55,793 nucleotides of DNA. It comes from a virus. Both the position numbers and the translations under genes were made by a program. The notes under the pieces are model-generated. The model was given only the letters and a program-made list of their open reading frames with translations, was not told where the DNA came from and did not search any database. The DNA lies in the IMG/VR virus record IMGVR_UViG_3300036827_000017, positions 1-55,793 of that record; one strand, 5' to 3'. This document shows positions 11,973 through 40,495 of this stretch, one piece after another; within the stretch, counting starts at the first letter, position 1; each line of letters opens with the position of its first letter.

Positions 11973-12005
11973 AATCATCGCCTTACACTTGGGACACTGC
12001 GCCGA

Positions 12006-19691: not shown

Positions 19692-20344
19692 AGAAATTGG
19701 CGCTTATCTTTCCGCTCGCATTGCTCACTGGCTGCGCGGCGTCCATCTATCAGCCCAAGCCACCTCTCCCGCCGACCACATTCACGAATCATTATCTGGC
19801 TGATCTTGCCTCTCCCACACTGCTTTCCAGTTACGACAGCCTGCCCGATGGATCGCTTAAAGTTGCACGGCGCAATGCCATCCTCTACGAATACATCTGG
19901 CTCGTGGACGCTAATTACTATACATACGAAGTGGGATTCTTTTCCGGTCAGGCGTATGTGAGCACGGCTGCGGACCTCGCGGTGATGGGCACAGATGCAG
20001 CCGCAGCAGTTACCGGGACGGCCATGACGAAAGCTATCCTTGCGGCGGTTGCTGGCGGGGTGGTGGGAGCGCGTAGTACATATCAAAAGAACTTCTTCGA
20101 TCAGATTACACGGGAAAATATCGTCGCGCAGATGCGAGCATCCCGAGCAAGCACGCTCGTTGAAATCATGCAGGGAATGAATATGAATGGGGTCGGTTAT
20201 ACGCTCGAACAAGGGTTGCTAGATGTAGCAGCCTATTATCGGGATGGAACGGTAATTAGCGCGGTCGAAGCCATCAGCAACTCGACCAGCCAGCAGGCCA
20301 ATACTGCCAGACAAGCCATGAAAACTTTGAGGGGAATACGCTGA
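19688..20344 (+). CDS. lipoprotein
   Basis: MKKLALIFPLALLTGC lipobox. Confidence 0.75.
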   Translation: MKKLALIFPLALLTGCAASIYQPKPPLPPTTFTNHYLADLASPTLLSSYDSLPDGSLKVARRNAILYEYIWLVDANYYTYEVGFFSGQAYVSTAADLAVMGTDAAAAVTGTAMTKAILAAVAGGVVGARSTYQKNFFDQITRENIVAQMRASRASTLVEIMQGMNMNGVGYTLEQGLLDVAAYYRDGTVISAVEAISNSTSQQANTARQAMKTLRGIR

Positions 20345-20347
20345 CTA

Positions 20348-21829
20348 ATGAAACGAATCGCCTTCGTAACCACGTGCAAGAATCGCGCCCAACATCTCAA
20401 GTCAACCCTTCCCCGCAATCTCGCCGACAACGCCTCCTACGCGAATGCCGTATTCATCGTCCTCGACTATTCCAGCCCTGATGATCTGCTCCCTTATCTG
20501 TTTATGAATCACCAGCAGGACATCGAATCCGGTCGTCTAGTCGTCTACTCGTTCCTTGATCCGGTGCCTGGACCGTTTCGTATGGCCCACGCTAAGAATT
20601 TAGCGGCCAGGTGCGGCATCCTCGAAGGCGCGGACATTCTCGTTACCCTCGACGCGGACAATTACACTGGCCCAGGATTCGCTCAATTTATTAGTGACCA
20701 CTTCACCGAACCGGGGATATTCCTATGTCCTGATTTTCCGCTCATCCACAGCCTTCCTCACGGCCCTTCCCGTCCGATGCGTGGCTATGCCGGTCGTCTG
20801 GCAATCCGGGCACAAGACTTCATTAAGGCCGGAGGGTACGACGAGATTTTCGATGTGTGGGGCAGCGAAGATATGGACATGATCTTTCGATTGCAGCGAA
20901 TGGGATACTCCATGCGGCATATCGACAACGGGTACCTGAATACGATCCCTCATCCCGCCGAGGTTCGCTTCAAGGAGTATCCCGAGGCGCAGAAGTATGA
21001 GACGAAACAGCACGTCCTGACCGTAGCCGCTCGGACACAAACCGTTGTGAATTACGGGCGGTTCGGCCTCGGCGCGGTGCGTCGCCATCCCGACTCGCGC
21101 ACCATCACACTCGCGCCCCTGCCGACCCGCATCTTCGGAATCGGAATGCAAAAGACGGCGACCAGCTCACTCCACAAAGCATTCCAGGCTCTTGGCTTCG
21201 ATAGCTTTCATTGGGGTGCCGGAGAAGCTCCCCTGATCTGGTGGGAGTCGCAGCAAGGCAGATCAAAAACTCTTGAACGCTGGTACGCGCTATCCGATAA
21301 CCCGATTCCCTTGCTCTATCGGCAATTAGACAGTTTGTATCCCGGTTCGAAGTTTATCCTCACGGTGCGCGACGAACGGGATTGGATCAAAAGCGTGGAG
21401 AGGCTATGGGACTACCGCTACAATCCGACCAGGTGGGTGTGGGATAAATATCCCTTCACTAATCACATTCACGCTGTCCTGTACGGCCAGAAGGATTTCA
21501 ACGCCGAGATCTTCCTTGCGCGGTATCGGCGTCACAACGCGGAAGTGAAGCGGTATTTCAAGTATCGTCCCGATGACTTGCTGATTCTCGACATCCCCGC
21601 CGGCGATGGATGGAATAAGCTATGTAAATTTCTCGGTAAACCTGTCCCCGATGTTCCCTTTCCGTGGAATAATAATACTCAGCAAAACAAGTTCATCGCC
21701 GCTGCTGCTGAAATCTATACCGAGCCTGCCATGAGAATATCCCGAAGGCACGAACGCCAGCATCACCACCATATGTCTTGGCTCCAGAAATTGTTCTGCC
21801 GGATTTGCCGTTGGTGGCATCGTGAGTAA
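20348..21829 (+). CDS. fusion: N-terminal GT-A glycosyltransferase (beta4GalT/GT7C-like) + C-terminal sulfotransferase
   Basis: VLDYSSPDD, TLDADNY, WGSEDMDMIFR (WGxEDxD motif); then IFGIGMQKTATSSLHKAFQALGF, a PAPS-binding-loop-like start of a sulfotransferase domain. Confidence 0.7.
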   Translation: MKRIAFVTTCKNRAQHLKSTLPRNLADNASYANAVFIVLDYSSPDDLLPYLFMNHQQDIESGRLVVYSFLDPVPGPFRMAHAKNLAARCGILEGADILVTLDADNYTGPGFAQFISDHFTEPGIFLCPDFPLIHSLPHGPSRPMRGYAGRLAIRAQDFIKAGGYDEIFDVWGSEDMDMIFRLQRMGYSMRHIDNGYLNTIPHPAEVRFKEYPEAQKYETKQHVLTVAARTQTVVNYGRFGLGAVRRHPDSRTITLAPLPTRIFGIGMQKTATSSLHKAFQALGFDSFHWGAGEAPLIWWESQQGRSKTLERWYALSDNPIPLLYRQLDSLYPGSKFILTVRDERDWIKSVERLWDYRYNPTRWVWDKYPFTNHIHAVLYGQKDFNAEIFLARYRRHNAEVKRYFKYRPDDLLILDIPAGDGWNKLCKFLGKPVPDVPFPWNNNTQQNKFIAAAAEIYTEPAMRISRRHERQHHHHMSWLQKLFCRICRWWHRE

Positions 21830-22346
21830 AGAGGGCTTGGTCGTCTGGCTGACTGGGCTTAGCGGCTCCGGCAAAACCACAATTTGTCAGGCAGTAGCCA
21901 AAGAACTTATCAGGCGCAAACTGCCAGTCGAGGTTCTCGATGGCGACGATGTGCGCAAGAATCTCACCAGCGACTTGGGCTTCACTAAAACCGACCGTGA
22001 CGACAACGTTCATAGAATTGGCTACGTCGCACATCTACTCGCTCGCAATGGCATCATCGTGATGGTCGCCGTCATCTCTCCCTATTACGACACCAGGCAG
22101 GAAGTCTACAAAACACTTGGTAAAGTCATTGAAGTGCATGTACACGCACCGCTTTCTGTCTGCGAGGCTCGTGATCCTAAAGGACTCTATGCGAAGGTTC
22201 GTGCCGGCGAGCTGTGGAACTTCACCGGAATCGACGACCCCTACGAACCACCGCTTACGCCGGAGATTGAATGCAACACTGCCGCGGAAACAATCGACGA
22301 AAGCCGTGATAAAGTCATTAAAGCTGTGCTGAAGAGTATCCGATGA
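21822..22346 (+). CDS. cysC: adenylylsulfate (APS) kinase
   Basis: VVWLTGLSGSGKTT ... LDGDDVRKNL...LGFTKTDRDDNVHRIGYVAHLLARNG. Confidence 0.9.
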   Translation: MSKEGLVVWLTGLSGSGKTTICQAVAKELIRRKLPVEVLDGDDVRKNLTSDLGFTKTDRDDNVHRIGYVAHLLARNGIIVMVAVISPYYDTRQEVYKTLGKVIEVHVHAPLSVCEARDPKGLYAKVRAGELWNFTGIDDPYEPPLTPEIECNTAAETIDESRDKVIKAVLKSIR

Positions 22347-22891
22347 AAGAATTTGCAACCAAGGCCGCACACTGGGATCATTGCATTCCCCTGCTGACTG
22401 TAGAGGGATTGGTGATGGAGTTTGGAGTATTCAACGGAACCTCCGTCAATCACATTGCCGACCGAGTTCGCCCGCACAAAGTCTACGGATTCGATAGTTT
22501 CAAGGGGTTGCCGCGAGGATGGTACAAGGTACGACAGGGATATTTTGCCCTGCCGGCGCCTCCACCTGTACGGGAGAATGTAGAACTGGTTATCGGACTA
22601 TTCGAGGACACCTTACCAGGGTTCCTGTCCGAGCACCCCGAACCAGCCTCATTCATTCATGTGGACTGCGACTTGTACTCTTCCACGAAAACAGTTCTGG
22701 ATCACTTAGGTCCACGAATCGTCCCTGGCACGATTATCATCTTCGATGAATTCAACGACTACGGGGGATGGGAATTACATGAGTTCAAGGCGTTTAGTGA
22801 GTTCATGGACGCATCTACTTTGAAATATGAATACATCGCTCAACTTGCTTCGAGCGATAATCCAAGACCCGTAAGTGTGAGGATTGTATGA
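22343..22891 (+). CDS. TylF/MycF-like class I SAM-dependent O-methyltransferase
   Basis: MEFGVFNGTS, GFDSFKGLP, HVDCDLYSSTKTVLDHL, IIIFDEFNDYGGW. Confidence 0.7.
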   Translation: MKEFATKAAHWDHCIPLLTVEGLVMEFGVFNGTSVNHIADRVRPHKVYGFDSFKGLPRGWYKVRQGYFALPAPPPVRENVELVIGLFEDTLPGFLSEHPEPASFIHVDCDLYSSTKTVLDHLGPRIVPGTIIIFDEFNDYGGWELHEFKAFSEFMDASTLKYEYIAQLASSDNPRPVSVRIV

Positions 22892-23319
22892 GCGCCCTTC
22901 CACTAAGATTTGAAAACAAGATCAACAAACTAGATTCTGGCTGTTGGGAATGGACAGGTAGGAAGGATAGTGGTGGGTATTGTCAGAGTTCTACAATTGG
23001 TAAAGACAAGCGGCGGTGCATGGCCCATAGAGCGGTTTATGAAATCCTTGTTGGCCCCATTCCGAAAGGTCTGGAGCTTGACCATCTCTGTAGGAATCGG
23101 GCCTGTGTCAATCCCGAACACTTAGAGCCAGTGACGACACGCGAAAATGTTTTAAGAAGCCAAAATTTAGCATCCATAAATGCCAAGAAAACTCACTGTC
23201 CGCAGGGACATCCGTATAATCAAGAAAATACATATATTTACCCAGACGGAAAACGAAGGTGCAAGATTTGTCGGATGGCAGCATCTAGAAAATATCGTGC
23301 CATGAAAGGTAAACAATGA
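22888..23319 (+). CDS. HNH endonuclease
   Basis: LDHLCRNRACVNPEHLEPVTTRENV. Confidence 0.85.
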   Translation: MSALPLRFENKINKLDSGCWEWTGRKDSGGYCQSSTIGKDKRRCMAHRAVYEILVGPIPKGLELDHLCRNRACVNPEHLEPVTTRENVLRSQNLASINAKKTHCPQGHPYNQENTYIYPDGKRRCKICRMAASRKYRAMKGKQ

Positions 23320-24161
23320 GAACGCACAGACGCCGGAGACATCACCACCACAGCAGACACAAACGCCACCATCGGGACATCCCGATCGGCAAGCTCGGCA
23401 AGCGCCCAGCCATCATCGACCCTCGCACGCTCAAGCTCGGGAAATATCTCCTTTCAACGCTTCCTCCGGCACCACTCTCGGTGGATTACACGATGGGCAT
23501 CAAAGATTTCTCGATGATGCTCAATGATGCGCTTGGCGATTGCGTGATTGCAGCCGTCGGCCACGCACAGCAGATATTTTCAGCCGCAGCACGCAGCTTC
23601 GCCGATACTCCTCCCGATTCGGTGATTCTCGCTGGCTACGAGAATTGGTGCGGGTATGTGCCCGGAAAGCCTCGCACCGACCAAGGCTGCTTTGAGATCA
23701 ACGTACTCAATGCGTGGCGCAAGTCGAGTTTTTATTCCTATTCTCTGAGCATGTATGCGGACCCGAATCCACGCAACATTGCCGAGATTAAGCAAGCCAT
23801 CCATCTATTCGGCGGGGTTTTTCTTGGAATCCAGCTACCTGTATCGGTTCAGGGATTAAACGTGTGGGATGTGTCGAGCGGGCCGGATGCTGTCCCTGGC
23901 TCCTGGGGCGGCCACGCCGTGTGGGTTCCGAAATACGTCACCAACGCCGATGGCAGCGTGACCTTCACCTGTATCTCCTGGGGCGGGTTAATCGACATCA
24001 CCGAAGCGTTCTGGCTCTACAACGATCCCTCGAACGGCCCATACATCGACGAAGTTCACGCACTCATTTCGCCGGAGTTCATCAACCGCAAGAGCCATAC
24101 GACGCCAACGGGCCTGAACCTCATGCAGATGGAAGCGGATATGCTGCAAGTCACGAAGTAA
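23316..24161 (+). CDS. papain-fold cysteine-peptidase-like protein with His/Arg-rich N-terminus
   Basis: LGDCVIAAVGH (Cys), SWGGHAVWV (His), CISWGG; order is as in C1-type peptidases; tentative. Confidence 0.5.
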   Translation: MRTHRRRRHHHHSRHKRHHRDIPIGKLGKRPAIIDPRTLKLGKYLLSTLPPAPLSVDYTMGIKDFSMMLNDALGDCVIAAVGHAQQIFSAAARSFADTPPDSVILAGYENWCGYVPGKPRTDQGCFEINVLNAWRKSSFYSYSLSMYADPNPRNIAEIKQAIHLFGGVFLGIQLPVSVQGLNVWDVSSGPDAVPGSWGGHAVWVPKYVTNADGSVTFTCISWGGLIDITEAFWLYNDPSNGPYIDEVHALISPEFINRKSHTTPTGLNLMQMEADMLQVTK

Positions 24162-24162: not shown

Positions 24163-24175
24163 TATTAAAATAATA
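24163..24175 (+). repeat. 13-bp dyad box
   Basis: exact; TATTAAAATAATATG, last A is the A of the lysozyme start; covers all but the first base of the 13-nt spacer. Confidence 0.9.
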
Positions 24176-24594
24176 TGCCCGTCGATTCAATCTCCTCGCA
24201 ACTCCGACGTGACGAGGGGGTGCGGCAATTCCCTTATGTGGACACCGTGGGCAAGACCACGATCGGCGTGGGTCGCAACCTAACCGATGTGGGACTCTCC
24301 GATGCGGAGATCGACTTCCTTCTCTCCAATGACATCCAGAAAGTGCTCAATCAGCTACAGGCACGCCTGCCCTATTTCGAGGCGCTTGATCCGGCGCGGC
24401 AAGGCGTCCTTATCAACATGGCCTTCAATTTAGGCTTCGCTGGCTTGGAAGGTTTCCCTCGTATGCTCTCCGCGTTCGCGCAAGGCGACTGGGAGCGTGC
24501 AGCGTCGGAAATGCTAGAGTCTCGCTGGGCGACTCAGGTGGGAGCGCGCGCCGAGCGGCTCGCGGAGCAAACGCGCACAGGACAGTGGGTCTAG
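24175..24594 (+). CDS. GH24 (T4-type) lysozyme / endolysin
   Basis: LRRDEGVRQFPYVDTVGKTTIGVGRNL (E...D...T catalytic pattern). Confidence 0.9.
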   Translation: MPVDSISSQLRRDEGVRQFPYVDTVGKTTIGVGRNLTDVGLSDAEIDFLLSNDIQKVLNQLQARLPYFEALDPARQGVLINMAFNLGFAGLEGFPRMLSAFAQGDWERAASEMLESRWATQVGARAERLAEQTRTGQWV

Positions 24595-25744: not shown

Positions 25745-25961
25745 ACCGTTCTCCCATAAGAGCTTGATTTAACTGTTCGCGCAGCCCCTTGGCCGTATCG
25801 ACTGGCAATGTGTATTTCACGATCGGCGCTCCCCTTGCGTACAGCGTTAAAATAATCTTCCCTTCGATTCGCTCGATGGCAACCCCGTCCGCGACTTCGA
25901 TCTGATCCCGTGGCACGTCACTAAGGATGTATCCCGTTATTCGTATTGGAAAGTGTACCAC
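25734..25961 (-). CDS. hypothetical protein (75 aa)
   Basis: ORF in operon context. Confidence 0.5.
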   Translation of the reverse strand: MVHFPIRITGYILSDVPRDQIEVADGVAIERIEGKIILTLYARGAPIVKYTLPVDTAKGLREQLNQALMGERYGR

Positions 25962-26949
25962 TGGTTACAATACTTAGAATCCCCGTCCCCGTGGTCATGT
26001 TGGTCGTCGTGGTATCGCATCTCCAGGTCACTCCGTCCGTGAGCCACGCGCACGCCGTTGACATTATCGGCGGTGGTGGCGTTCCCGATTGCACCAATTG
26101 AATTGCATCGTACTTGGCATTATTCGCGGTGCCCTTTACGAACGAAATAATGATGGTGCCTGTCGAGGTGACCGTAATCGTCTTGTCGATGGCCTTGTAT
26201 TGCCCGCCTGCTGCCGCGAAAATGTCGAAATTCGATAAAACATGGACCCCGTTGATCGTCACATTGAAAACTCGCTGGCCCGCCGCCGTAAAGTAGATCT
26301 CCGCAAACTTGATGGTCAGCGAATAAGTTCCTGCGGGCGCCGGGATCGTACAGGTTGTTACGCCGGGATTGTCGTAGCGTTCGCTCTGATACAAAGCTGC
26401 ATCGGCCAGAGAAGGCAACGCGCCGGTAATCGCATGGGTTGTGGTAAAGGTACTTCCCCCAGCGCAATACGTCGTATCCGCCGACCAAGTATTTCCTTGC
26501 GAATCCGTATAGGCCGTACCGGGCTTTATCCGCACGGGCGTAAAACTCGTGTCTGCCGGAATCACGGCCTGAACCTCGTTGCTGAATACCGACGTGATGC
26601 TGGCCGAGTTCATCGTGGTCACGACGTAGTAGTACGTCTGTCCAGCAACCACGCTGGTATCGACGAAACTCGTTCCCGGAATGAGAGCAGGCGACAATGC
26701 TATTTCCGTTCCGGGAGTTTGGCTTCGCAGTACGTTGTAGCCAGAACAGGTCTGTGCAATCTTTCCTGTCAAGTCTGTACCACACGAAGTCGCAGCCGTC
26801 CATGTAAGCGTGGCTGAGTGGGTCGTCGCCGTATTCGTCACCGTAGGCGATGCGAGCGTCGGTACCGTCATCGTCGGGTCAGCATTACGCTGACCGTGCG
26901 CCGGCAGAGCGAATAGGAATGACGCCAGTAGGAACAGTTTCATCCTCAT
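25921..26949 (-). CDS. exported Fn3-like + malectin-domain carbohydrate-binding protein
   Basis: start moved to MRMKLFLLASFLFALPAHG/Q signal peptide; YTDSQGNTWSAD...LYQSERY...YSLTIKFAEIYFTAAGQRVFNVTINGVHVLSNFDIFAAAGG is malectin-like. Confidence 0.8.
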   Translation of the reverse strand: MRMKLFLLASFLFALPAHGQRNADPTMTVPTLASPTVTNTATTHSATLTWTAATSCGTDLTGKIAQTCSGYNVLRSQTPGTEIALSPALIPGTSFVDTSVVAGQTYYYVVTTMNSASITSVFSNEVQAVIPADTSFTPVRIKPGTAYTDSQGNTWSADTTYCAGGSTFTTTHAITGALPSLADAALYQSERYDNPGVTTCTIPAPAGTYSLTIKFAEIYFTAAGQRVFNVTINGVHVLSNFDIFAAAGGQYKAIDKTITVTSTGTIIISFVKGTANNAKYDAIQLVQSGTPPPPIMSTACAWLTDGVTWRCDTTTTNMTTGTGILSIVTSGTLSNTNNGIHP

Positions 26950-27244
26950 TGATAAGCCTCTGAAGCAATTCATAGCGAGTCGAGCAATCTGCTTTGCGAA
27001 GAATTTCTGAGACGTGAAATTTAACTGTGCGGGTCGCACATCCCAACGAACTTGAGATTTCCTTGTTATGCAAGCCGCGACGGATGCCATCTAACACTTG
27101 GCGCTGGCGGTAGGTCAACCGCATCCCTCTAAGCAAATTCATCTCGGTAAGGACAAGTTTCTGCACGCGGCTTAGTTCTTGCTTCGCCATTTCAAATTGC
27201 CGAACGGCGTGGTCGAGTTGCGCTCCTAGAGAGAGTTCTTTCAT
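26885..27244 (-). CDS. LuxR/GerE-type HTH regulator
   Basis: LTYRQRQVLDGIRRGLHNKEISSSLGCATRTVKFHVSEILRK. Confidence 0.8.
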   Translation of the reverse strand: MKELSLGAQLDHAVRQFEMAKQELSRVQKLVLTEMNLLRGMRLTYRQRQVLDGIRRGLHNKEISSSLGCATRTVKFHVSEILRKADCSTRYELLQRLINEDETVPTGVIPIRSAGARSA

Positions 27245-27253
27245 GTTTAGTTC

Positions 27254-28315
27254 TCAATCCGCAAAACAAATCACCTTTAACACGTCATTTGCTACAAATG
27301 AGGTCGGCACTGTCACGTCGCTGAAATTGGTGATCGTTACAGACGTTGTGCTCTCTCCTCCTGTTTGCCTCTGTAGAGATACTGACGTTGTTTGCGTCGT
27401 AATGTCACTTGCGGAACAATTCCAACCTGTCACGGCTCCTGGCATAGTTACAGTGCAAGCTGATCCTGGTGCCGTGCCAACGGCAATCTTAAATGCTGCT
27501 GTCCCGTTCTGTGCCGAGATCGTTGCCGCGCTGCCACCACACCCCGCACCCGCAATTGTTGGGGCAGTAGTGGATATAATGGGCGCCCCGGTCACTGAGT
27601 TCATGATTGCGGTAAGAAACTGAAAATTTAGATTGGACCTTATAAACGTCGGCGATGCTATCAGTCCGTTGGAGCTTCCAGCATTTAGCAGTAGGTTGGT
27701 GCCATCCGTATTTATGCCCACGCTTGGCGCAGACGTGAACGCATAGGTCGGCAACGCGGTAGTCCCGTTCGGTCCTAAAACTGCCTCAGTGGTCGTCACG
27801 TTCGTTGCGTTATCGCTCAGTGCCGAATCTACAAACGTGGTGGCGTTTGACCGTTTAGGCAGTACGTTGTTGGTCGCATTAATAGTGGTGCCCGCGCCTC
27901 CACCGCCCCCACCCGCTCGGGCAGAAGCGATGGATTGGACAATGGACACGGTAGTTGACCCGCCGGCCTGTGTGGACATGCGCATGTACACGTTGGTATA
28001 GCCAGCGGTATTCGCCTGCCATGTCCCCGTTCCAGTCGTCGAAGTTACGGCAGTCGTGCTATTGCTCGGCGTGACGTTCAATGCGACCCGCGTTGTGCCA
28101 CCATCGCCAGAGGCTTCGAATTGGATCGTGTTTCCCGAGGCGTTGGTTGTGATCGTGAATGTTGCCCCGCCTTGGCCGGGATCGACAGAAACGCCGAGGC
28201 AGGATGTGGACGTGCAACTGGCGCTTGCCGCCGTCAGGGGTATTTTCTGCTGCGCCGGAGACGCACGCGCTAGTGCCAGCATTATTAAAATAATAATGAG
28301 CAACCTTTTTTGCAT
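27254..28315 (-). CDS. exported fibre-like protein, paralogue A (353 aa)
   Basis: MQKRLLIIILIMLALARASPA/QQ signal peptide; N-domain aligns with that of 28324..31008; GGGGGGAG linker. Confidence 0.75.
   Translation of the reverse strand: MQKRLLIIILIMLALARASPAQQKIPLTAASASCTSTSCLGVSVDPGQGGATFTITTNASGNTIQFEASGDGGTTRVALNVTPSNSTTAVTSTTGTGTWQANTAGYTNVYMRMSTQAGGSTTVSIVQSIASARAGGGGGGAGTTINATNNVLPKRSNATTFVDSALSDNATNVTTTEAVLGPNGTTALPTYAFTSAPSVGINTDGTNLLLNAGSSNGLIASPTFIRSNLNFQFLTAIMNSVTGAPIISTTAPTIAGAGCGGSAATISAQNGTAAFKIAVGTAPGSACTVTMPGAVTGWNCSASDITTQTTSVSLQRQTGGESTTSVTITNFSDVTVPTSFVANDVLKVICFAD
28283..28295 (+). repeat. 13-bp dyad box
   Basis: exact; inside signal peptide LLIIILIM of 27254..28315. Confidence 0.9.
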
Positions 28316-28323
28316 TTACCCTC

Positions 28324-31008
28324 CTAGTGCGTCCCCACCACGTAATCCACGGTAAAGCCCTGCAAGGTGAAATCGGCGTTCGTTCCCCCGCCTGTCGGCA
28401 ATCCACCAGCCCAATTGCTGATCTGACAGTTAGCGATCGCATCGTTGGCCTGTATTAAAAAGCCAGGAGTTCCGAAGGGAATGTTGGTGGCTAAGATGCT
28501 GTCCGTGAACGTTCGAACAGATGTATTGTTCTGCCATACCGTGAGCAACGCAGACGTAGGTGAGATCTGTTTAACTGATAGACCGATTTTGTCGTTTGCC
28601 GCAACTGTCAGCGTGAAGGTGTCGAGCGTATTGTTGCCGCCGTTGATAAATGCAACTAACCTCTCTGTCGCTACAGGACTTCCTAGTGGTCCATCGATCT
28701 CCAATTTATACGCGCAGCCAGCGCCGCAGGTACTTACTTCCGAGCGGACTAGGGCATTGACAGTATTGCTAGCCGTAAGGGTTTTGATCGTCACTTCTGA
28801 GTACTGATCGTTCGGCCAAGTTCCCGGTCCAGTGAAAAAAGCGGCAGACGGCGTAGCCGTTGCGGTCGGCTCGGCGATATTTCCTGCAATGACTTTAGGA
28901 AGTATGCAGCAGGGTTGAAAGTTGGTGAAGTTCCCGCCATCGCTCAGGGGATTTTCAACGACTGAAAAATTGTACGAATAGAGCGTCAAGGGAAACGGCC
29001 CCGTACCGGCAAAACTCCCCGTCGTTGCCGTTGCCGCGATCACTTCATCAACCGATGTGTCAATCGTCGTTGTCGCGTTCTGGAGTGCTGGCGCCGCTAC
29101 TCCGTCCATCCCGGTTCCAATCGCCTTCTGTGAATTACTGGTGATGCCATCGGTCAGAATCTTGGCCTCTACGCTGAGAGTGCCGCCGCTCACAGTCGAT
29201 GTGACCGTGGAAACCGTAGTCCCGCCCCAGTCGATCGTGAGCGTCTTGGAGTTCCCGTTCGCACGGGTAGCGCCCCATGCTCTGACCAGGAGATAATCGC
29301 CGCCTCCGGGACTTTGCGCCACGGTTTGCAAGGCCAACGGTTGAAACGAATTGTAAAGCAGCGTTTTTGCCGGAACGGTGTAGCTGGAAAGCGTCGTCTT
29401 GGCAGTCGAGAAATCACCGAACGCCGTTGATGACGTGTACTTATTCCCGGTTGTCTTGTTCCAGGAGGGTTGCTCAACTTTGTAATTCTGCCCGCCGCTG
29501 GTGAAGAACACGTTGCCGTTCACGATGCCGTGATCTGAGTACACCCAGGAAACCGTTCCACCTGTAATCCCAGGCGTTTCCTCGGTCGCTCCGGTCTGAT
29601 AGACCCACGGTCCACTGACGGCCTTTTCAACATTGGCTTCTGGAAAGTTGATTAGCATTCCCTGAAATACTTTTGTGCCAATGTCCACCTGATTCACATC
29701 GTTATAGAACAGCGCATGAAAGACAGTTATCGGGTAGGAAGAATTTATGCCTTCGCGGTTGTAGGTCTTGAACATCGCAAGCCCAGTAGTGCACTCGAAC
29801 AGGTAGGGCGTATAGACCGCCGTGTGCTCGCCGTTAATTTCAAGGCAGGTTTCCGAGCCGCGCATGTAGATATTCCGGGCGTACATTCCGTCATCGTAAG
29901 TGGAAGGACTGACGATGCCCTTTTCTCCCGCTGCCGCAAGGGTTGTAGGTTGGCTTAGATAATTCGTGTCCACGCCGATGGTACTGAATTGCGTAGCCTC
30001 CAGCATGTCGATGGCGTATTCATTTCCGCGCTGATTGTCGGGGAATCGGACACCGATGTTTTCCATCGACACAGGGCCGTTCCACTCTCCCGGCGCGAGC
30101 GAAAAGAAGTTGGGCCTTTTCCACCAGCCCACTAGGATATTTGCTCCTGCCGCTGTCCGGGCCGCTGCCGTGATATTGAAAATGACGCCAACATCGGTTT
30201 CCAGTGGAAGACCAAGAGTCCCGTGCTCCATGCCGAAATTCGCTGATTCTCCGACGAAATTGAATTGCGGATAAGTTGCCGCGCCGGCGACTGCCGGGAT
30301 ACCCCAAACAAAACAATAATTTGTATAAGGACTGGTTACTTCGAGTGTGCAGGAGTTCCCGTTATAGATTCCGTTTCGGAAATAGAACGTACCACCTGTT
30401 GCTGTAACGGCAGTCATCGCGCTATTCACAACGACTGCGGCATCAGTACCGGAAAAGTCAGCTAGGCCAGTCAATCCGTTCATCGCGCAGTACGTGGTTC
30501 CTGTAGGGCTATAGTTGGTAAATGAGCACGCTGCGGTGGATGGGAAAAATGTGTAAGTGCTAACGCCACCTCCACCGCCCCCCCCTGCTCCACCACCACC
30601 GCCCCCGGCTCTGGCAGAGGCGGTGGATTCAATAATACTGGCTACTACCGGCCCACTTGAAAAAGTCGATACTCGCTCACGCACATTCGTATAGCCAGCG
30701 ACATTCGCCTGCCAAGTGCCCGTTCCCGTGGCCGACGTAACCGCCGTAGTACTGTTACTCGGGGTCACGTTTAAGGCTACCCAAGTCGTTCCTCCATCTC
30801 CAGATGCTTCAAATTGCACCGTGGCGGAAAATGTTCCAGTTAGAGTGAATGTGGCCCCGCCCTGCGTTGGATCAACAGACACGGATAGGCAGGCTGCGGA
30901 AACCCCCGATGCACAAGTGGTTCCCGAGGCGGTCAGGTTTGCCTTTTGCTGCGCCGGTGCCGCCAGTGCCAGCGCCAACAGTATTAAAATAATAATTAAT
31001 CGCTTCAT
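28324..31008 (-). CDS. exported fibre/depolymerase-like protein, paralogue B (894 aa)
   Basis: start moved to M79 = MKRLIIILILLALALAAPA/QQ; shared N-domain, long poly-Gly linker, large C-terminal region. Confidence 0.75.
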   Translation of the reverse strand: MKRLIIILILLALALAAPAQQKANLTASGTTCASGVSAACLSVSVDPTQGGATFTLTGTFSATVQFEASGDGGTTWVALNVTPSNSTTAVTSATGTGTWQANVAGYTNVRERVSTFSSGPVVASIIESTASARAGGGGGGAGGGGGGGVSTYTFFPSTAACSFTNYSPTGTTYCAMNGLTGLADFSGTDAAVVVNSAMTAVTATGGTFYFRNGIYNGNSCTLEVTSPYTNYCFVWGIPAVAGAATYPQFNFVGESANFGMEHGTLGLPLETDVGVIFNITAAARTAAGANILVGWWKRPNFFSLAPGEWNGPVSMENIGVRFPDNQRGNEYAIDMLEATQFSTIGVDTNYLSQPTTLAAAGEKGIVSPSTYDDGMYARNIYMRGSETCLEINGEHTAVYTPYLFECTTGLAMFKTYNREGINSSYPITVFHALFYNDVNQVDIGTKVFQGMLINFPEANVEKAVSGPWVYQTGATEETPGITGGTVSWVYSDHGIVNGNVFFTSGGQNYKVEQPSWNKTTGNKYTSSTAFGDFSTAKTTLSSYTVPAKTLLYNSFQPLALQTVAQSPGGGDYLLVRAWGATRANGNSKTLTIDWGGTTVSTVTSTVSGGTLSVEAKILTDGITSNSQKAIGTGMDGVAAPALQNATTTIDTSVDEVIAATATTGSFAGTGPFPLTLYSYNFSVVENPLSDGGNFTNFQPCCILPKVIAGNIAEPTATATPSAAFFTGPGTWPNDQYSEVTIKTLTASNTVNALVRSEVSTCGAGCAYKLEIDGPLGSPVATERLVAFINGGNNTLDTFTLTVAANDKIGLSVKQISPTSALLTVWQNNTSVRTFTDSILATNIPFGTPGFLIQANDAIANCQISNWAGGLPTGGGTNADFTLQGFTVDYVVGTH
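30578..30585 (-). repeat. G8 homopolymer (C8 on plus strand) in a poly-Gly linker
   Basis: read directly; inside 28324..31008. Confidence 0.8.
30982..30994 (+). repeat. 13-bp dyad box
   Basis: exact; inside signal peptide RLIIILIL of 28324..31008. Confidence 0.9.
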
Positions 31009-31019
31009 TGCCCTCCTTT

Positions 31020-31778
31020 TTACCAGATTCCTTGATGATGCCGCGGAACGCCTGACGGTGGTGCTGCCGGCGCGATGGCGACCGATGCTCCTGCCCAGTG
31101 CCCAGCAGCCGATAGCGTGGCTGCAACCGTAAATGTTCCGGTTCCAGCCGGAAGTTGATCCTCGGTGCCCAAGGGGTAGAAGTGGACGTTCTGACAGCCA
31201 GTGCACGGCGCCGCCACATTGTTGCCCGTCACCGAGGTCCATCCGCTGCCTGCGGTAGCGATGTAGGCGTTGATCGAGGGAGCGTTGAAGTCGCCAAACC
31301 CGGAAAATATGGCCGTGCCCGCTGTGGACACCGTAAGGCTTGGGGTAGTTCCAGAGGTTGTCGTGCCTTGGGCTTCCTGGTGATCTGCAATTGGAGAAAT
31401 ACTAGATACGCCAGCGAGATCGTAAACCACAATTGAGGTGTCGGTGCCACTGGTGGCTACCGTAATCGTCGTCGCGGAGGCTGCTACATTCAGATGATAC
31501 GTCCAACGGCAGTTGTTAGGAATGGCGCCACCCGAGTTTACGGAATTAGCTACGACCACGTAATTCCCGGCGTTGACGTTATCAGTGGTGTTTCCACTGA
31601 ACCCAGACCCAGTACAGTAAAAGGCTAGCAAGGTGTCGCCTAACGCATTAGGTGTAAGCGTCACAGACACATTGTTAGTCGTTTGCGTGCTGGTCACGAT
31701 CTGGCTAACGGTGACACCAGCCGCCTGCGCAACAGAGGCACAGCACAACAACATCCCGAGGATTAGTAGGCGTCTCAC
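31020..31778 (-). CDS. exported protein (252 aa)
   Basis: GTG 31778 overlaps upstream stop (GTGA); (M)RRLLILGMLLCCASVAQA/AG signal peptide. Confidence 0.6.
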   Translation of the reverse strand: MRRLLILGMLLCCASVAQAAGVTVSQIVTSTQTTNNVSVTLTPNALGDTLLAFYCTGSGFSGNTTDNVNAGNYVVVANSVNSGGAIPNNCRWTYHLNVAASATTITVATSGTDTSIVVYDLAGVSSISPIADHQEAQGTTTSGTTPSLTVSTAGTAIFSGFGDFNAPSINAYIATAGSGWTSVTGNNVAAPCTGCQNVHFYPLGTEDQLPAGTGTFTVAATLSAAGHWAGASVAIAPAAPPSGVPRHHQGIW

Positions 31779-33322
31779 TGGGATAGAGATACAAACCACG
31801 AAGTCTGCTTGCTGGTGCCGTCCGCTACCCACGTAAATTTGATTACGTCGCCGCTGGCGATCGTCGTTGTCGCGCTCTGCGTGCCTGCCGCACCGCCCGC
31901 CGCCGCCGTACACGTCACCGCGCCGGTCAAAAGCCCCGTCGCCGCGCCATTTGTCGCATTCAGCGTCGATGATCCCGCATTGTCGGTGAAGCACCCGATG
32001 CGCGTGATCGTCCATGTCACTCCCGAATCGTTGTAGCAGTTGGTTTGCAGATACGTGCCCGCAGCTACGGCATTAAGACCATCGCCAAGTCCCGTGTCGC
32101 AACGCAGTTTTGCGTATTGCGATGGACATCCCGCAGTGCTGACCAGATGTTTGTTAGAGTCGGTGCAGACAAGGTTGCTGGCTGTCAGATCGTTCACCGT
32201 AGCCGTAGCAAACGTATTCTTCGTGCTCGATCCGGCCTGGAAGATGCCGTAGTTATTAGCGCCAGAGCCTTCGTCATCAAAATAATCTACATAGTTCGCC
32301 GTACCACCTGCTGTTTGCGCACGATGACGTACTCCATATATAGTGCCGAACGAACCTCCTGCTGCCGCATGATTTGTTGGTACGTTAAAGTTTGTAGCGT
32401 TGGTGATCGTCCCTGCTGCTTCTGTATCTATCTCGTAGTTCATGCCTATCGCGTCTGTTAGTGTTCCCTGCGCGGCAATCGCTACTCCCCCGTTTTGTCC
32501 TACACATGAGGCTACAGTGTTCCCTAAACCGGGACTCGCATAGCAGTCAGTCTCGGCTCCAACGCCGGAAGTTGCGTTGCCGGAAACAGCCCCAGCGATC
32601 TGTACCGCCAGTGCTGTTGCGTCTGTAGCTCCTTTATTTATAAAGGACGCTGCTATTCCGGGATTACCAGCAGTGCCAGGGAAGGGAGTATTACTACCTA
32701 CGAATAAGCCTATTGTCTCAGATAGGATAGGTACAAGGTCAGTTGGTAAACCTGAAAGTGTCGGACCTATAGTTGCTTTTTTATTTACATTGTCCCAAGT
32801 AAATTGAGCGTCACCACCTATAGATGTCGCGCCAGTCCAGAACGTAACTTCCCCGGCAGCGCCACTCCCTGTAATTGACCCCCCGCCACCCACTACACAT
32901 CCCACTGAAAGCGGCACTGTAAACGCATTGATCTGCGAGGTGAGGTCTACTGGCCCTGCGCCCGTGATCCCCGTGAGTGGGCCTGTGCTGAAATTGGAGA
33001 TCCCGCATCTCTCAGTTATACGGAACACATAATGGCAAGTGGTCAGCGCATTGCCGTTTACATCCTTCAATTGCGAGGTGTCGAAAAGCACCTGGCTGAA
33101 GTGACCATTGCTATCTAGTCCGACCGTTGGCGTGTCGCGCGCAATTGGAGTTGGACCGCTATAAGCCTGTTCATTGCCAGGACACACCAGCGAAGCATGA
33201 GCGGTCCCGTTAGCCCACGGGCCGTTCGAGCCGATAACTGTGGCACTCACGGTAAGCTGCTGCGCGTGCAAAAAAGCAGGACACGCCATCAGTATTAAAA
33301 TAATAATGAGACGTTTGACCAT
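31775..33322 (-). CDS. exported fibre-like protein (515 aa)
   Basis: MVKRLIIILILMACPAFLHA/QQ signal peptide; Gly/Thr/Ala-rich repeats. Confidence 0.75.
   Translation of the reverse strand: MVKRLIIILILMACPAFLHAQQLTVSATVIGSNGPWANGTAHASLVCPGNEQAYSGPTPIARDTPTVGLDSNGHFSQVLFDTSQLKDVNGNALTTCHYVFRITERCGISNFSTGPLTGITGAGPVDLTSQINAFTVPLSVGCVVGGGGSITGSGAAGEVTFWTGATSIGGDAQFTWDNVNKKATIGPTLSGLPTDLVPILSETIGLFVGSNTPFPGTAGNPGIAASFINKGATDATALAVQIAGAVSGNATSGVGAETDCYASPGLGNTVASCVGQNGGVAIAAQGTLTDAIGMNYEIDTEAAGTITNATNFNVPTNHAAAGGSFGTIYGVRHRAQTAGGTANYVDYFDDEGSGANNYGIFQAGSSTKNTFATATVNDLTASNLVCTDSNKHLVSTAGCPSQYAKLRCDTGLGDGLNAVAAGTYLQTNCYNDSGVTWTITRIGCFTDNAGSSTLNATNGAATGLLTGAVTCTAAAGGAAGTQSATTTIASGDVIKFTWVADGTSKQTSWFVSLSQ
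33293..33305 (+). repeat. 13-bp dyad box
   Basis: exact; inside signal peptide RLIIILILM of 31775..33322. Confidence 0.9.
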
Positions 33323-33453
33323 TACGCCCTCTTCGACATGCGCCGACCATGTTTCTTGCTCTTACGGCCCTTGCCACGTTCGAAGGGCTTGAACTCTTTC
33401 TTGGCATCGGCTTCGGACTCCATCTGCGAGCCTGCTATCTTTTTTGCGAACAT
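33322..33453 (-). CDS. small basic protein (43 aa), not in ORF track
   Basis: GGAGG 8 nt before ATG 33453; MFAKKIAGSQMESEADAKKEFKPFERGKGRKSKKHGRRMSKRA; TAATG junction with the next gene. Confidence 0.4.
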   Translation of the reverse strand: MFAKKIAGSQMESEADAKKEFKPFERGKGRKSKKHGRRMSKRA

Positions 33454-33455: not shown

Positions 33456-33608
33456 TCATTTCCTCCGTGAACTGCGCTTCGAATGGCGCACTTTGTGGCG
33501 CTTGCCACCGACTACCACCGACTCGGCGTGCGTGGGGATGTTATGAATATGCGTATAAGCGTTGTATTTTCGGTACGCTTCTTTGTCCTTGAATCTTTCG
33601 GTTGGCAC
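33456..33608 (-). CDS. small basic protein (50 aa), not in ORF track
   Basis: GTG 33608 shares one base with the upstream TAG; ...GGKRHKVRHSKRSSRRK. Confidence 0.35.
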   Translation of the reverse strand: MPTERFKDKEAYRKYNAYTHIHNIPTHAESVVVGGKRHKVRHSKRSSRRK

Positions 33609-37684: not shown

Positions 37685-40495
37685 CTAAACCGCTGAAACC
37701 GGAACGCCAAACGGACGCGGCTCTACCGCCCAGTCGATCCCATCCAACTCAAGGTGGTCATCCCCGCTGATAATCGCATCGAATCGCAATCCCGTCAGGC
37801 CAATGTCTGCGAACAGGTCGAAATCGCCCTGATTCGATATTTTGTAGTTTACTGAGCTTTTCACGACGCCGCTCTGCCGTATCTGCACGTTGATGACGCT
37901 GTACGGGTCGGTATCCGAGTTCGATCCCGTGCCGCGGACAATCATCTTGCGTGCCCACAATCGCTGACTAGAGTTCTGCGAGGCTACCGTCACCGTCCGC
38001 AGCGACCATGCCACTTCCTGATTCGCTATGATGTCACCCGTGTACCACTGAATATCGCCCGCCTGCCAGCGTTGCAGGCATCCATCGCTGAACCCGCCGA
38101 GAATAGTCAACGGATTCGAAGTAACCGGCTGAACCTGGGCCATGCAGCCAATCGCAAATGGCAGGTCCACGGGCGCGGCCCACGCCTTGAGCACCAAATC
38201 GTAGGCCATCATGCGCGTCAATTGTCCGTTGCTGTTTCCGATCGGCATGGCGAAGGCGTACATCGGTGGATTCGCCGTCTGCGCGGCCCAGCTTAGAGGC
38301 AGATAATTCGCATCAGCAACCACAATATCGCGTGCGTCAAAATCATTAACCGGGAATAGATAAGGTCGAATCTGCTCACTAATCACCTCGTCGCGGAAGC
38401 CGTTGAACACGGCGATTCCTAAATGTGAATAGCGCATCAGTCCGTAGCCGGGTACGAACGTGATTGAGCGCGGCGCGAGGCATCCCATGTCCGATGAAAC
38501 CGGCTGGATAGCGAAATTGTTGGCTCCGAATACTCCGATGATCTGGTAGGGCACACGGTACTTGAAGGCAATGAGCGAGCCTTCGGGGGGAATGCCCTGC
38601 GCGGTGATGGTGAACTTGCCCAGTCCCATGCCTTCTGCGCCATCGTCTTTGTCGAGAAATGCCTGATTGACGGGATTCCAAGCATTCGGGTTATTCGTGT
38701 TCGACATGCGGAGGGCGCAGGGTCCATCAAGGCCGTTCGCTGTGTTGGTGGGAGAGGTATTGAGCACCCACAGGGAACCCGCATACACCTCGATGTGCCC
38801 TGCGCCGGGGGGTGGGGGAGCCGCGGAGTTGAGAAGCGCAGTCACGGTCCAGATGACGGTGCCATCGGAAAACTGGTCGCCAATCGTCGAATCCCATGTC
38901 GGCTCGACTGTTCCAGATACGCCCTGCTGCGTGGCTGTGAGGTAGACATTCGGAGTTGGCTGCGTGAGCGGCACGATGATGTCGCCAACCGAGTAGGCCG
39001 TCGATGCTGTCCAGACCGGGTAGGCTGGCGTGAACGTGCTGATAATCGGCGTCGTGGACACTGTGAATGTGCCCGTAGAAGCCCCGCCGCTCGCGTTGAC
39101 ATTACGAATCACGAAACTTCCCCCTGCTCCGGGAGTTACCGCAACCACGGGGAATACGCCGTTGTAGGTCGAATCGGTCATCCCCGAAAGAATCACATTT
39201 GAACCTACGGGAAGATTCGCAGTCGTGATCGTTACGCTGCCAGCGACCGTCACAGTGACTTGATCCCCGGAAACTGCTACCGAGGCAATCGCTCCCGCGA
39301 AAGCCGGATTGACCGGACTTCCAGACGCATCGGAATACATCTGCGGAGCGAACCCATTCCCGAGCGCGATGATCACTCGATTGGTGAACTGCTTCATCTG
39401 CGGCAGTGGGCCGACCAGACCTTGAACGCCTCCTGCTGGTGTCGAATTTCCCTGTCCACTGATTCCCGGTCCAGTCGTGCCGGTGCCACCGCTGCCACCT
39501 GTAGGCACTTGCCCGAGCATAGACAGCGATGCTGGAAAATTCGCCACGATGTTCGCATTGGAGTAGCTTACTGGAATTGAACCGAGCGGCATCTTGAACA
39601 GCACAGTCTGCTGTGTGGTATCGGCGCCAGGTGGCAATGCACCGCTGGTTAATGAGCCTCCGGTTCCCACCGTTCCCATTGCATACGGTCCAAACGCGGG
39701 AGAATCAATCCTGTAACTTGTGGGAGAAAAAATAACGCTCACCGTCACAGGCACATTCCATGCGGAGATAGAATTTCCGGCAACATTCAGAATTTGCCCC
39801 AAATAAAGACTCGCCGGAGACGCCAGCGTAACGTATGCAAAATTGTCGAAATCTGCCGGTGTCGTGATGTCTGTGATCGGATAGCCGCCACCTGGGAACA
39901 GGGTTGCACTGCCGTTATCTATGAAAGTGACTGTTCCGGTAAAAGGATTCGGCTGAATTACTGGCAGTCCGGTTGCGATCAAAAGAACTTCGGTCCCTGT
40001 GGTTGTCGAGCGATAGACGTTGTAGCCAAACGCATTGGGCACAGTGTTCCAGACGAGCGTGTTGGAAAGATTCCCTCCCGATGGCGTTCCAGTAATTTCA
40101 TTTGATGGCATCGTTTCCCCGCCCACGCCATCAATCGCTGTAATCTTGTAAAAATACTGTGTTCCTGAAACGAGACTGCCGCCCGTCGATGGAGTTGCCG
40201 AAACAGCAAATGGTGAACCAAGGCCATTCGTTTTAGAGCCTGCAACCACAAGGTAGTAGGGATTCACTCCAGTAGGCTCATATAAAAACAAGGACATAAA
40301 GCGGCGTTCCGTAGTTTGTACCGCACCGCCAAACCAGTTGATGATCCCCGAGCCATCGCACGGCGTCAGCGCACCGCGCTCCATGAGCACAAGATTCGAC
40401 CCGCGCGGAAACGATCCCTTCGGCTGCGAGAGCGGCTGATTCGAGGCGACTAGGCCTTTCAGAAAAGGCCCTTGGCTGATCGGCTGGTACGTCAT
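37685..40495 (-). CDS. large tail/virion structural protein (936 aa)
   Basis: size and position; Fn3-like segment NTLVWNTVPNAFGYNVYRS. Confidence 0.7.
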   Translation of the reverse strand: MTYQPISQGPFLKGLVASNQPLSQPKGSFPRGSNLVLMERGALTPCDGSGIINWFGGAVQTTERRFMSLFLYEPTGVNPYYLVVAGSKTNGLGSPFAVSATPSTGGSLVSGTQYFYKITAIDGVGGETMPSNEITGTPSGGNLSNTLVWNTVPNAFGYNVYRSTTTGTEVLLIATGLPVIQPNPFTGTVTFIDNGSATLFPGGGYPITDITTPADFDNFAYVTLASPASLYLGQILNVAGNSISAWNVPVTVSVIFSPTSYRIDSPAFGPYAMGTVGTGGSLTSGALPPGADTTQQTVLFKMPLGSIPVSYSNANIVANFPASLSMLGQVPTGGSGGTGTTGPGISGQGNSTPAGGVQGLVGPLPQMKQFTNRVIIALGNGFAPQMYSDASGSPVNPAFAGAIASVAVSGDQVTVTVAGSVTITTANLPVGSNVILSGMTDSTYNGVFPVVAVTPGAGGSFVIRNVNASGGASTGTFTVSTTPIISTFTPAYPVWTASTAYSVGDIIVPLTQPTPNVYLTATQQGVSGTVEPTWDSTIGDQFSDGTVIWTVTALLNSAAPPPPGAGHIEVYAGSLWVLNTSPTNTANGLDGPCALRMSNTNNPNAWNPVNQAFLDKDDGAEGMGLGKFTITAQGIPPEGSLIAFKYRVPYQIIGVFGANNFAIQPVSSDMGCLAPRSITFVPGYGLMRYSHLGIAVFNGFRDEVISEQIRPYLFPVNDFDARDIVVADANYLPLSWAAQTANPPMYAFAMPIGNSNGQLTRMMAYDLVLKAWAAPVDLPFAIGCMAQVQPVTSNPLTILGGFSDGCLQRWQAGDIQWYTGDIIANQEVAWSLRTVTVASQNSSQRLWARKMIVRGTGSNSDTDPYSVINVQIRQSGVVKSSVNYKISNQGDFDLFADIGLTGLRFDAIISGDDHLELDGIDWAVEPRPFGVPVSAV

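Follow-up and report, generated by a model that had tools for sequence, protein, structure and literature searches.

The stretch of DNA analyzed here, record IMGVR_UViG_3300036827_000017 of IMG/VR (55,793 nt, hereafter the window), is the 55.8-kb genome of an uncultured, podovirus-like soil phage in which five consecutive genes on the minus strand, designated A to E (25921-33322) and broken only by a gene for a GerE/LuxR-type regulator, encode proteins whose N-termini have the look of cleavable Sec signal peptides (Table 1). The genes follow the order terminase, portal, capsid, the large conserved proteins p420 and p936, internal-protein genes, the A-E block, small membrane proteins and lysozyme, and the block therefore lies between the internal-protein and lysis genes. 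The five open reading frames (ORFs), with their coordinates and N-termini, are as first described in a reading made from the sequence alone (the sequence-only reading), which had also placed them in the tail fiber slot; that observation is confirmed here and extended to a large family, with the same layout in related contigs.

In the textbook view the particles of tailed phages, including their receptor-binding proteins, are assembled in the cytoplasm, and the absence of a signal peptide has even been used as an argument that a fiber-like protein is phage-derived, a rule that the whole family described here breaks. The sequence-only reading had called export signals unexpected on fiber-like proteins, and published practice agrees: their absence is treated as the norm for phage fiber and spike proteins (PMC6199706), such proteins are expected to be made without one (bioRxiv 10.64898/2026.09.13.751334, Fig. 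S23 legend), and in a survey from 2026 only 5% of prophage carbohydrate-active enzymes had signal peptides (PMC13507307). Full-text literature searches yielded no description of tail fibers or spikes with Sec signals.

Export-signal features of the five proteins

All five proteins carry one or two Lys/Arg within their first four residues, and next comes a hydrophobic stretch free of charges, 12 or 14 residues long in A, C, and D and shorter in B and E; the best 9-residue Kyte-Doolittle windows of these regions range from 2.7 to 3.9. Ahead of the predicted cleavage sites, positions -3 to -1 read LHA in A, AQA in B, APA in C, SPA in D, and AHG in E. There is no Cys at +1 that would indicate a lipobox, and the Tat motif S/T-R-R-x-F-L-K is not matched; an RR pair occurs only in B, outside a Tat context, and B alone is borderline. 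In A, C, and D the upstream ATG is preceded, at a distance of 4-9 nt, by an AGGAGG-like Shine-Dalgarno site. When all ORFs of the window were scanned with crude rules, alternative starts included, A-E, one lipoprotein, and a few short overlapping ORFs were flagged. The term canonical, as applied here to signals for Sec and signal peptidase I, stands for rule-based features together with conservation, and by these two measures the predicted signal peptides of A-E are genuine. The lipoprotein (218 aa, 19688-20344, plus strand; MKKLALIFPLALLTGC), which could be a spanin or an exclusion protein, is the sole other signal-bearing protein in the genome and has a homolog in an unrelated locus (L008).

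The mature regions of A-E are also rich in Cys (1.82%, compared with 0.62% in the other twelve structural-module proteins), a threefold enrichment (Fisher p = 7e-6), and the number of Cys residues is even in four of the five.

Conservation of the signals among homologs

A search with C gave 73 homologs, many of them on contigs of 54-56 kb, and most share just the N-terminal ~130 residues at 50-70% identity while their C-termini are unrelated. Signal-like N-termini are present in 71 of the 73, typically with the cleavage context ARA/QQK, and in the other two the gene call is visibly truncated. An exhaustive HMMER search, for which residues 1-140 of C were the query, matched 2192 representatives of clusters formed at 50% identity at E<=1e-3, of which 668 reached E<=1e-10; since the signal was part of the query, the weakest of these matches are to be discounted. 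In the best 150 matches the alignment nearly always begins within the first 30 residues of the target. Signal-like N-termini were found in 101 of 105 further cluster representatives, which together with the 73 makes ~97% of ~180 N-domain homologs, the exceptions being truncated gene calls or hydrophobic N-termini that miss the Lys/Arg rule.

The other proteins of the block give the same picture. Homologs of A number 186, and 97 of the 119 that were listed have signal-like N-termini, as do the full-length orthologs P0076 and P0078, which have the same signal as A. The orthologs of B (P0197-P0199) likewise share its signal, P0197 and P0198 starting with MKKLLIL; some have ATG starts, and the copy of P0199 in locus L005 has a GTG start. 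The same signal is present in the ortholog of E in L006, and all five start codons of A-E are supported by orthologs. Across homologs the sequence drifts while the physicochemical pattern and the cleavage motif persist, which is the mark of functional signal peptides.

Relatives of the block were seen neither among GenBank phages nor among reference genomes: tblastn of the N-domain and of the A C-terminal domain matched none of 50,697 GenBank phage records, and one N-domain peptide pattern, run against 185,579 reference genomes, found no relative. At the DNA level, megablast of 19 kb found no relative among the same GenBank records, tblastn of the capsid protein against GenBank phages gave matches only at <= ~25% identity, and that of p936 and p420 was uninformative.

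Domain architecture and predicted structures

C and D share an N-terminal domain of ~115 aa (N-domain; 68% identity) that is followed by a poly-Gly linker and then by differing C-termini, the layout that the sequence-only reading had pointed out. The AlphaFold2 (AF2) model of D, made from a 45-row alignment, has a confident beta-sandwich at residues 22-130, and the N-domain is the only segment with a predicted local distance difference test score (pLDDT) >90; the Gly linker and the shaft are disordered, and the C-terminal beta domain is moderately confident. When this model was compared with the Protein Data Bank (PDB) by Foldseek, the top match was YomS (6i5o; E = 1.5e-5, probability 1.0, target TM-score 0.67, 110 columns, 24% identity) and the second was XepA (6i56; E ~2.5e-3). 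The fold table gives no query range. The YomS match most likely concerns the shared N-domain, because the pLDDT exceeds 90 only there and because hhalign pairs that region, its best pairing being D 50-114 with YomS 40-104, although at an E value (0.23) that is not significant. Sequence searches of the PDB with A, C, D, and two profiles gave noise only, and YomS and XepA were absent from the profile matches. Compared with predicted viral structures, the D model matches uncharacterized proteins of uncultured phages.

Eight other N-domain proteins end in the same C-terminal tip domain as D: P0028 (82%), P0002, P0043, P0049, P0054, P0058, P0047, and P0010. Of the four Cys residues of this domain the last two are always kept; six carriers have the first two as well, three lack both, and none has just one of them. 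Together with the Cys enrichment, this co-variation has the look of disulfide pairs, for which it would be indirect evidence.

In A the conserved part is the distal C-terminal domain, the conserved N-terminal module being a layout shown for C and D. This domain is matched by nearly all of the 119 listed homologs at 45-90% identity, mostly 60-90%. A fold search with the AF2 model of A gave no match at E<=1e-3, and the weak similarities seen were to transthyretin-like folds (E ~1e-2) and to the head of influenza haemagglutinin. A few carriers of the domain are clearly signal-less, such as P0170, whose N-terminus is reminiscent of phage tail fiber proteins (...ATQINLATQVMGTLGHANGGT) and whose gene adjoins two signal-bearing ORFs.

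E contains a malectin domain (Pfam PF11721; E = 6.7e-24, 85.1 bits against a cut-off of 23), as the sequence-only reading had stated, and the adjacent LuxR-type gene that it named is confirmed (PF00196; E = 3.2e-14, 52.7 bits against a cut-off of 23.5); the label FN3-like for another part of E is a reading of its sequence only. Peptidase_S74, which serves phage fibers and spikes as an intramolecular chaperone, forms the C-terminal end of two N-domain homologs, P0016 and P0042. No fiber or spike family was found for A-D, which matched nothing in Pfam or PHROGs even at E = 5, and a beta-helix was hinted at in one homolog only, below threshold. The variable body of C is also found in other signal-bearing proteins. 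B is a small protein with no recognized domain.

The fiber slot across the phage family and its hosts

The same gene order, with two to five signal-bearing ORFs in the slot, is found in the related loci L001, L003, L005, L006, L018, L020, L030, L032, and L034, where p420-like and p936-like genes are followed by small proteins, internal-protein genes, the large signal-bearing ORFs, and lysis genes. In the loci inspected the upstream genes of the structural module were not flagged by the signal rules, save for a few doubtful or short overlapping ORFs. The slot of L006 also holds a signal-less GDSL-lipase protein. Between phages the N-domain is 60-85% identical, which is similar to p420, p936, and p200, and the regions behind the linker are swapped wholesale. 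No other variable fiber candidate is present, p420 and p936 being conserved. A-E are the variable, modular, glycan-oriented genes of a family of ~55-kb podovirus-like phages, and the predicted signal is a trait of the whole family.

The locus L009 had been considered as a case of a signal-less fiber and was discarded as evidence, since a signal-like segment lies upstream in the same frame and its fiber ORFs look frameshifted. Its record name suggests a nanopore assembly; at 3200-9674 the signal-like segment lies in the middle of the ORF of a called internal protein, and the locus is probably one giant signal-bearing fiber broken by sequencing errors.

The A C-terminal domain also occurs in contigs of metagenome-assembled genomes assigned to Terracidiphilus, Korobacteraceae, Bryobacterales, and Terriglobia, and in one more binned to Patescibacteria. 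A Terracidiphilus contig (154-390 kb) contains a block that resembles a prophage, keeps this gene order, and has four signal-bearing ORFs in a row. The hosts are thus most likely Acidobacteriota, and as these are diderm, a Sec signal would deliver A-E to the periplasm.

Gene organization of the window

The genes of the block are tightly packed (Table 1), with gaps of 0-11 nt or overlaps in the run A-B-C-D-GerE-E, and their G+C content is that of the remaining genome. No promoter or terminator signals above chance were found in this operon, where promoter-like matches are fewer than in shuffled sequence. The 3' end of the GerE gene overlaps the start of E, including its signal codons, by 65 nt (26885-26949) in a different frame, and the same GerE-E arrangement with a 71-nt overlap is present in L006. 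The GerE protein, with its 119 aa only, has no receiver or autoinducer domain. The two tiny genes directly upstream of A have start and stop codons that overlap those of their neighbors by 1 nt, and they are kept in L001, L003, L005, and L006.

Table 1. Genes, domains, and sequence motifs of the window, with the signal-bearing ORFs in the corresponding slot of related loci.
Feature	Position	Strand	Remarks
Large terminase	51003-52802	-	
Portal	48227-49966	-	P22/SU10 type
Major capsid protein	43688-44692	-	
p420	40492-41754	-	Large conserved protein
p936	37685-40495	-	Large conserved protein; immunoglobulin-like (Ig-like) domain/segments
Ala/Gly/Gln-rich genes	36880-33608	-	At podovirus internal-protein position
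Tiny, extremely basic proteins	33456-33608, 33322-33453	-	50 and 43 aa; directly upstream of gene A
Gene A	31775-33322	-	515 aa; signal, transthyretin-like N-domain, Gly-rich linker, variable middle, conserved C-terminal domain
A, signal-peptide codons	33263-33322	-	MVKRLIIILILMACPAFLHA/QQ (predicted)
A, C-terminal domain	31778-32125	-	Residues 400-515; beta-sandwich, four conserved Cys; pLDDT ~90
Gene B	31020-31778	-	252 aa; GTG start overlaps stop codon of A; predicted signal (M)RRLLILGMLLCCASVAQA/AG
Gene C	28324-31008	-	894 aa; predicted signal MKRLIIILILLALALAAPA/QQK, YomS-like N-domain, poly-Gly linker, large variable body
C, N-domain	30610-30951	-	Residues 20-133
C, poly-Gly linker	30565-30606	-	GGGGGGAGGGGGGG
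Gene D	27254-28315	-	353 aa; predicted signal MQKRLLIIILIMLALARASPA/QQK, N-domain, Gly linker, shaft, C-terminal tip domain
D, N-domain	27917-28252	-	Residues 22-133; beta-sandwich
D, poly-Gly linker	27896-27913	-	
D, C-terminal tip domain	27257-27589	-	Residues 243-353; four Cys
GerE/LuxR-type helix-turn-helix gene	26885-27244	-	119 aa
Gene E	25921-26949	-	342 aa; predicted signal MRMKLFLLASFLFALPAHG/QR, FN3-like stretch, malectin domain (26146-26520), C-terminal tail
Lysozyme	24175-24594	+	
13-nt motif in A signal codons	33293-33305	-	Encodes IILI; exact in L005, L006, L015-L017
13-nt motif in C signal codons	30982-30994	-	
13-nt motif in D signal codons	28283-28295	-	In-frame ATG directly after
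13-nt motif, all sites (13 nt each)	230, 2240, 5158, 7662, 8919, 11960, 16872, 18568, 24163, 28283, 30982, 33293, 37668, 47527, 50990, 53873, 54723		
Slot ORFs, L001			458, 766, 1102 aa; signal-like N-termini
Slot ORFs, L003			825, 210, 474 aa; signal-like N-termini
Slot ORFs, L018			395, 915, 194, 190 aa; signal-like N-termini
Slot ORFs, L030			1020, 586, 268, 627 aa; signal-like N-termini
Slot ORFs, L032			1262, 209, 674, 352, 246 aa; signal-like N-termini
Slot ORFs, L034			At least 4; signal-like N-termini

A 13-nt motif within the signal codons

A 13-nt AT-only near-palindrome, TATTATTTTAATA, lies within the signal codons of three of the five genes. The sequence-only reading had described it as a dyad box in A and D, with an in-frame ATG 3 nt after it in A and 0 nt after it in D, and this is what the sequence holds; the motif is, nevertheless, not special to A-E, there being 17 exact copies in the window where 0.05 would be expected. 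One end of it adjoins an ATG in 12 of the 17 copies, both orientations relative to genes occur, and in ~10 copies a long ORF starts within -1 to +6 nt. It lies inside the first 10 codons of four genes: in A, C, and D it falls within codons 5-10 and encodes the Ile/Leu core, and in the gene at 18568 it falls within codons 4-8 in another frame. B and E do not have it. In the closest relatives (L005, L006, L015-L017) the motif is exactly kept while the flanking codons change, and it is absent from L001-L004 and L018-L036, which bear the same signals. The codon after the motif is ATC in L016, TTG in the A ortholog of L017, and TTG or GTG in the N-domain genes of L005, L006, and L017.

The motif is hence a recent DNA-level element placed where the hydrophobic core could tolerate it, and the signals do not owe their existence to it. 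It probably serves as an operator or as a start-associated control element, and an operator fits it better than a promoter does, since it occurs in both orientations and no conserved -35 element was found near its copies. For the same reasons, and because promoter-like matches are fewer than in shuffled sequence, its reading as a sigma-70 promoter for leaderless mRNAs is left open and not adopted here. The GerE protein was considered as the motif-binding protein, a link that is not supported, as L018 and L019 have a GerE homolog and no motif. A precedent for such repeats is provided by the start-associated sequences of Cluster K mycobacteriophages, which are 13-bp repeats just upstream of start codons; the likeness lies in an exactly kept 13-nt repeat, present in many copies beside translation starts, and the difference in that the motif described here is AT-only and near-palindromic, occurs in both orientations, contains no Shine-Dalgarno sequence, and lies inside the codons of four genes.

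Comparison with known phage proteins

The closest parallel to the N-domain is provided by XepA and YomS of the Bacillus subtilis prophages PBSX and SPbeta. XepA reportedly appears late, undergoes export past the cytoplasmic membrane, and is absent from mature PBSX particles; no transmembrane domain has been reported for it and its export route is not defined (PMC6834076). It belongs to the lytic cassette of PBSX, and YomS adjoins tail-protein genes of SPbeta (PMC6834076), yomS lying directly upstream of the fiber genes yomR and yomQ. The probable fold of the N-domain, a similar gene position, and export, which is reported for XepA and predicted here, are shared. No relationship at the sequence level was found between these proteins and the N-domain (Pfam, hhalign, PDB profile search), however, and their host is monoderm, whereas in the phage described here a classical signal and the N-domain are fused through a Gly linker to large variable bodies.

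The fibers and tailspikes of podoviruses, such as T7 gp17, P22 gp9, and the K1F endosialidase (Peptidase_S74), resemble A-E in their position after the internal-protein genes, in having a conserved N-terminal module, a linker, and variable C-termini, with Peptidase_S74 present in two homologs here, and in a receptor-binding-type C-terminal domain that is shuffled between phage types. They differ in that the known ones have no export signal and each of A-E has a predicted one, and that no fiber family of Pfam or PHROGs matches A-D. Phage proteins with a Sec or lipoprotein signal do occur among or beside fiber genes, as in Lom and Bor of lambda, Llp of T5, and Cor of phi80 and N15. These are single small outer-membrane proteins or lipoproteins that have their own expression and serve exclusion or serum resistance, in contrast to the five large modular proteins that here replace recognizable fiber genes and are conserved family-wide. 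The Sec-exported or signal-arrest-release endolysins Lys44 of fOg44 and Lyz of P1 are made late, use host Sec, and wait outside the cytoplasm until lysis (PMC6834076), but they are peptidoglycan hydrolases and not fiber-like, and the lysozyme of this phage has no signal-like N-terminus in the rule-based scan.

Possible roles of the exported proteins

Tailed phages need a variable host-range determinant and A-E are the sole candidates for it here; because of this, and because their architecture is fiber-like, Peptidase_S74 ends some of their homologs, and the A C-terminal domain is carried by signal-less fiber-like proteins, we tentatively favor the reading that A-E are exported via Sec and then attached to particles at lysis as the equivalents of fibers or spikes. 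They would accordingly be variable proteins that recognize or degrade the host surface and are made as genuine Sec preproteins. Late in infection, these would cross the inner membrane via host Sec, be cleaved after the AxA site, and fold with disulfide bonds in the oxidizing periplasm, while capsid-tail particles would be assembled in the cytoplasm as usual. The products of the adjacent holin and lysozyme genes would then breach the membrane, the two compartments would mix, and C and D could dock through their YomS-like N-domain; E, B, and perhaps A may act as free lectins or enzymes on glycans of the envelope or the exopolysaccharide. The least certain step is the post-lysis attachment of C and D. 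A more general scheme, in which the fibers or spikes of Acidobacteria phages are routed through Sec, cleaved by signal peptidase, locked by disulfides, and attached once lysis merges the compartments, with a YomS/XepA-like N-domain as the dock, is less likely than not.

Several points weigh against attachment at lysis. To our knowledge, no tailed phage adds receptor-binding proteins to its particles from a periplasmic pool. Particles are assembled in the cytoplasm, and dilution at lysis would make attachment inefficient. XepA, which is the sole characterized relative by fold, is reportedly exported and yet absent from particles. No docking partner for the N-domain was identified, and p936 with its Ig-like domain could itself bind the host. 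In a differently organized genome (L026; IMG/VR contig 3300048907_000138) a protein of 728 aa with a signal and the N-domain is encoded at 9998-12184, a short way downstream of a putative capsid gene and not in a terminal fiber slot, which fits poorly with a single specific docking partner on the tail and bears on whether the N-domain would dock to tails or to heads. The export and cleavage of A-E are themselves predicted from rule-based features and conservation, and the number of Cys residues in C is odd.

It is quite possible that A-E are exported accessory proteins that never join the particle, much as XepA does not. They would be periplasmic late in infection and would bind or cut glycans of the envelope or exopolysaccharide or their periplasmic precursors, with easier release, less trapping of progeny on debris, or a block to superinfection as possible benefits, and host recognition by the particle would fall to conserved tail proteins such as p936, in which Ig-like segments are present. 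The conservation of signals and AxA sites argues that export is under selection, YomS and XepA are the proteins nearest to the N-domain in structure, E is simply a lectin of malectin type, B is small and has no recognized domain, A-E are enriched in Cys, and their slot abuts the membrane-protein and lysozyme genes. The secreted lectins or depolymerases put forward in the sequence-only reading are in this form still a live explanation. Such free proteins would leave the phage without its variable host-range determinant, however, A-E being the only variable, shuffled genes here; free enzymes cannot, from what is generally known of capsule-specific podophages, carry an incoming particle through the exopolysaccharide of a new host, and the outer membrane would still have to be crossed before surface glycans could be reached. 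The Peptidase_S74 ends of homologs and an A C-terminal domain common to signal-less fiber-like proteins also speak for the particle. A different solution, that two isoforms exist, was likewise raised in the sequence-only reading; only a signal-less cytoplasmic form, made from an internal start after the 13-nt motif by a leaderless transcript or by internal initiation, would then enter particles. In its favor are the in-frame ATG or TTG that A, C, and D have 0-3 nt behind the motif, the frequency with which the motif abuts an ATG or lies near the start of a long ORF, its exact retention within the signal codons of orthologs as the flanking codons change, and the packed operon, which leaves no other room for internal control sites. 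The motif and the in-frame ATG do exist, but only the closest relatives have the motif, whereas the whole family has the signals, and the codon after the motif is not a conserved ATG in orthologs, so that a signal-less isoform cannot explain the signals in general; moreover, any hydrophobic core would be expected to contain Leu, Val, and Met codons, the motif is lacking in B and E, one further gene has it in a different frame, and its two orientations and the missing -35 element suit an operator better than a promoter. We consider two isoforms unlikely.

Much less probable still are two further explanations. One holds that the hydrophobic segments are not export signals but uncleaved structural segments, such as a buried helix or a membrane-active fiber tip, or the result of start codons set too early. 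Gene callers indeed set the start after the hydrophobic core in P0077, P0195, and P0196, and AF2 draws the N-terminal hydrophobic segment as a plain helix in the models of A and D. Yet such late calls arise when the gene in fact starts with GTG, strong Shine-Dalgarno sites precede the upstream ATG of A, C, and D, the hydrophobic cores are not long enough to anchor a protein in a membrane, and the Lys/Arg, the short hydrophobic run, and the AxA pattern are found in ~95% of homologs in a sequence that is otherwise free to vary, all of which makes this a very remote prospect. The other, equally improbable, is that A-E are morons, recently acquired host genes under the control of the adjacent LuxR-type regulator and unrelated to virion function. 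The GerE/LuxR gene does lie between D and E, and malectin domains, which are not phage-specific, have been described throughout the tree of life and are frequent in proteins of bacteria. The description of these genes as moron-like and LuxR-controlled is nonetheless disfavored by the tight operon, which includes GerE and has gaps of <=11 nt and no separate promoters or terminators, by the native base composition, and by the family-wide conservation of slot and signals, which extends to members in whose fetched loci no GerE was seen; nor was a relative found in the reference genomes with the peptide pattern used.

If A-E are fibers, virion assembly would span two compartments, disulfide-stabilized receptor-binding proteins would be a new adaptation, speculatively one to acidic soils, and two-compartment assembly, if true, would suggest a function for the enigmatic exported XepA/YomS of Bacillus prophages. 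If they are free enzymes, these would be phages without a recognizable variable receptor-binding protein that devote up to five late genes to exported glycan-acting proteins. Pipelines that drop signal-bearing proteins in searches for receptor-binding proteins would miss A-E, and the family is a pool of candidates for secretable lectins and depolymerases against Acidobacteria, a dominant soil phylum.

Other features of the genome

Auxiliary genes cluster at 2697-5265 (minus strand), 10099-10584 (minus), 15957-16766 (minus), and 20348-22891 (plus). They encode a radical SAM/B12-binding protein, an RGP-like glycosyl mutase/transferase, a nucleoside 2-deoxyribosyltransferase, and a 3'-phosphoadenosine 5'-phosphosulfate (PAPS) reductase, together with a glycosyltransferase-sulfotransferase fusion, an adenosine 5'-phosphosulfate (APS) kinase, and a TylF-like methyltransferase, which suggests that a glycan or DNA is sulfated or glycosylated. 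The pair of APS kinase and sulfotransferase is also kept in L005 and L006. Three genes of homing-endonuclease type (HNH_3, HNH/endonuclease VII-like, and LAGLIDADG) are located at 22888-23319 (plus), 44711-45211 (minus), and 46227-46682 (minus), two of them as insertions in the head module, between the genes for portal and capsid. A protein of 281 aa (23316-24161, plus), encoded immediately upstream of lysozyme and with no Pfam match, has an Arg/His-rich N-terminus, MRTHRRRRHHHHSRHKRHHRD.

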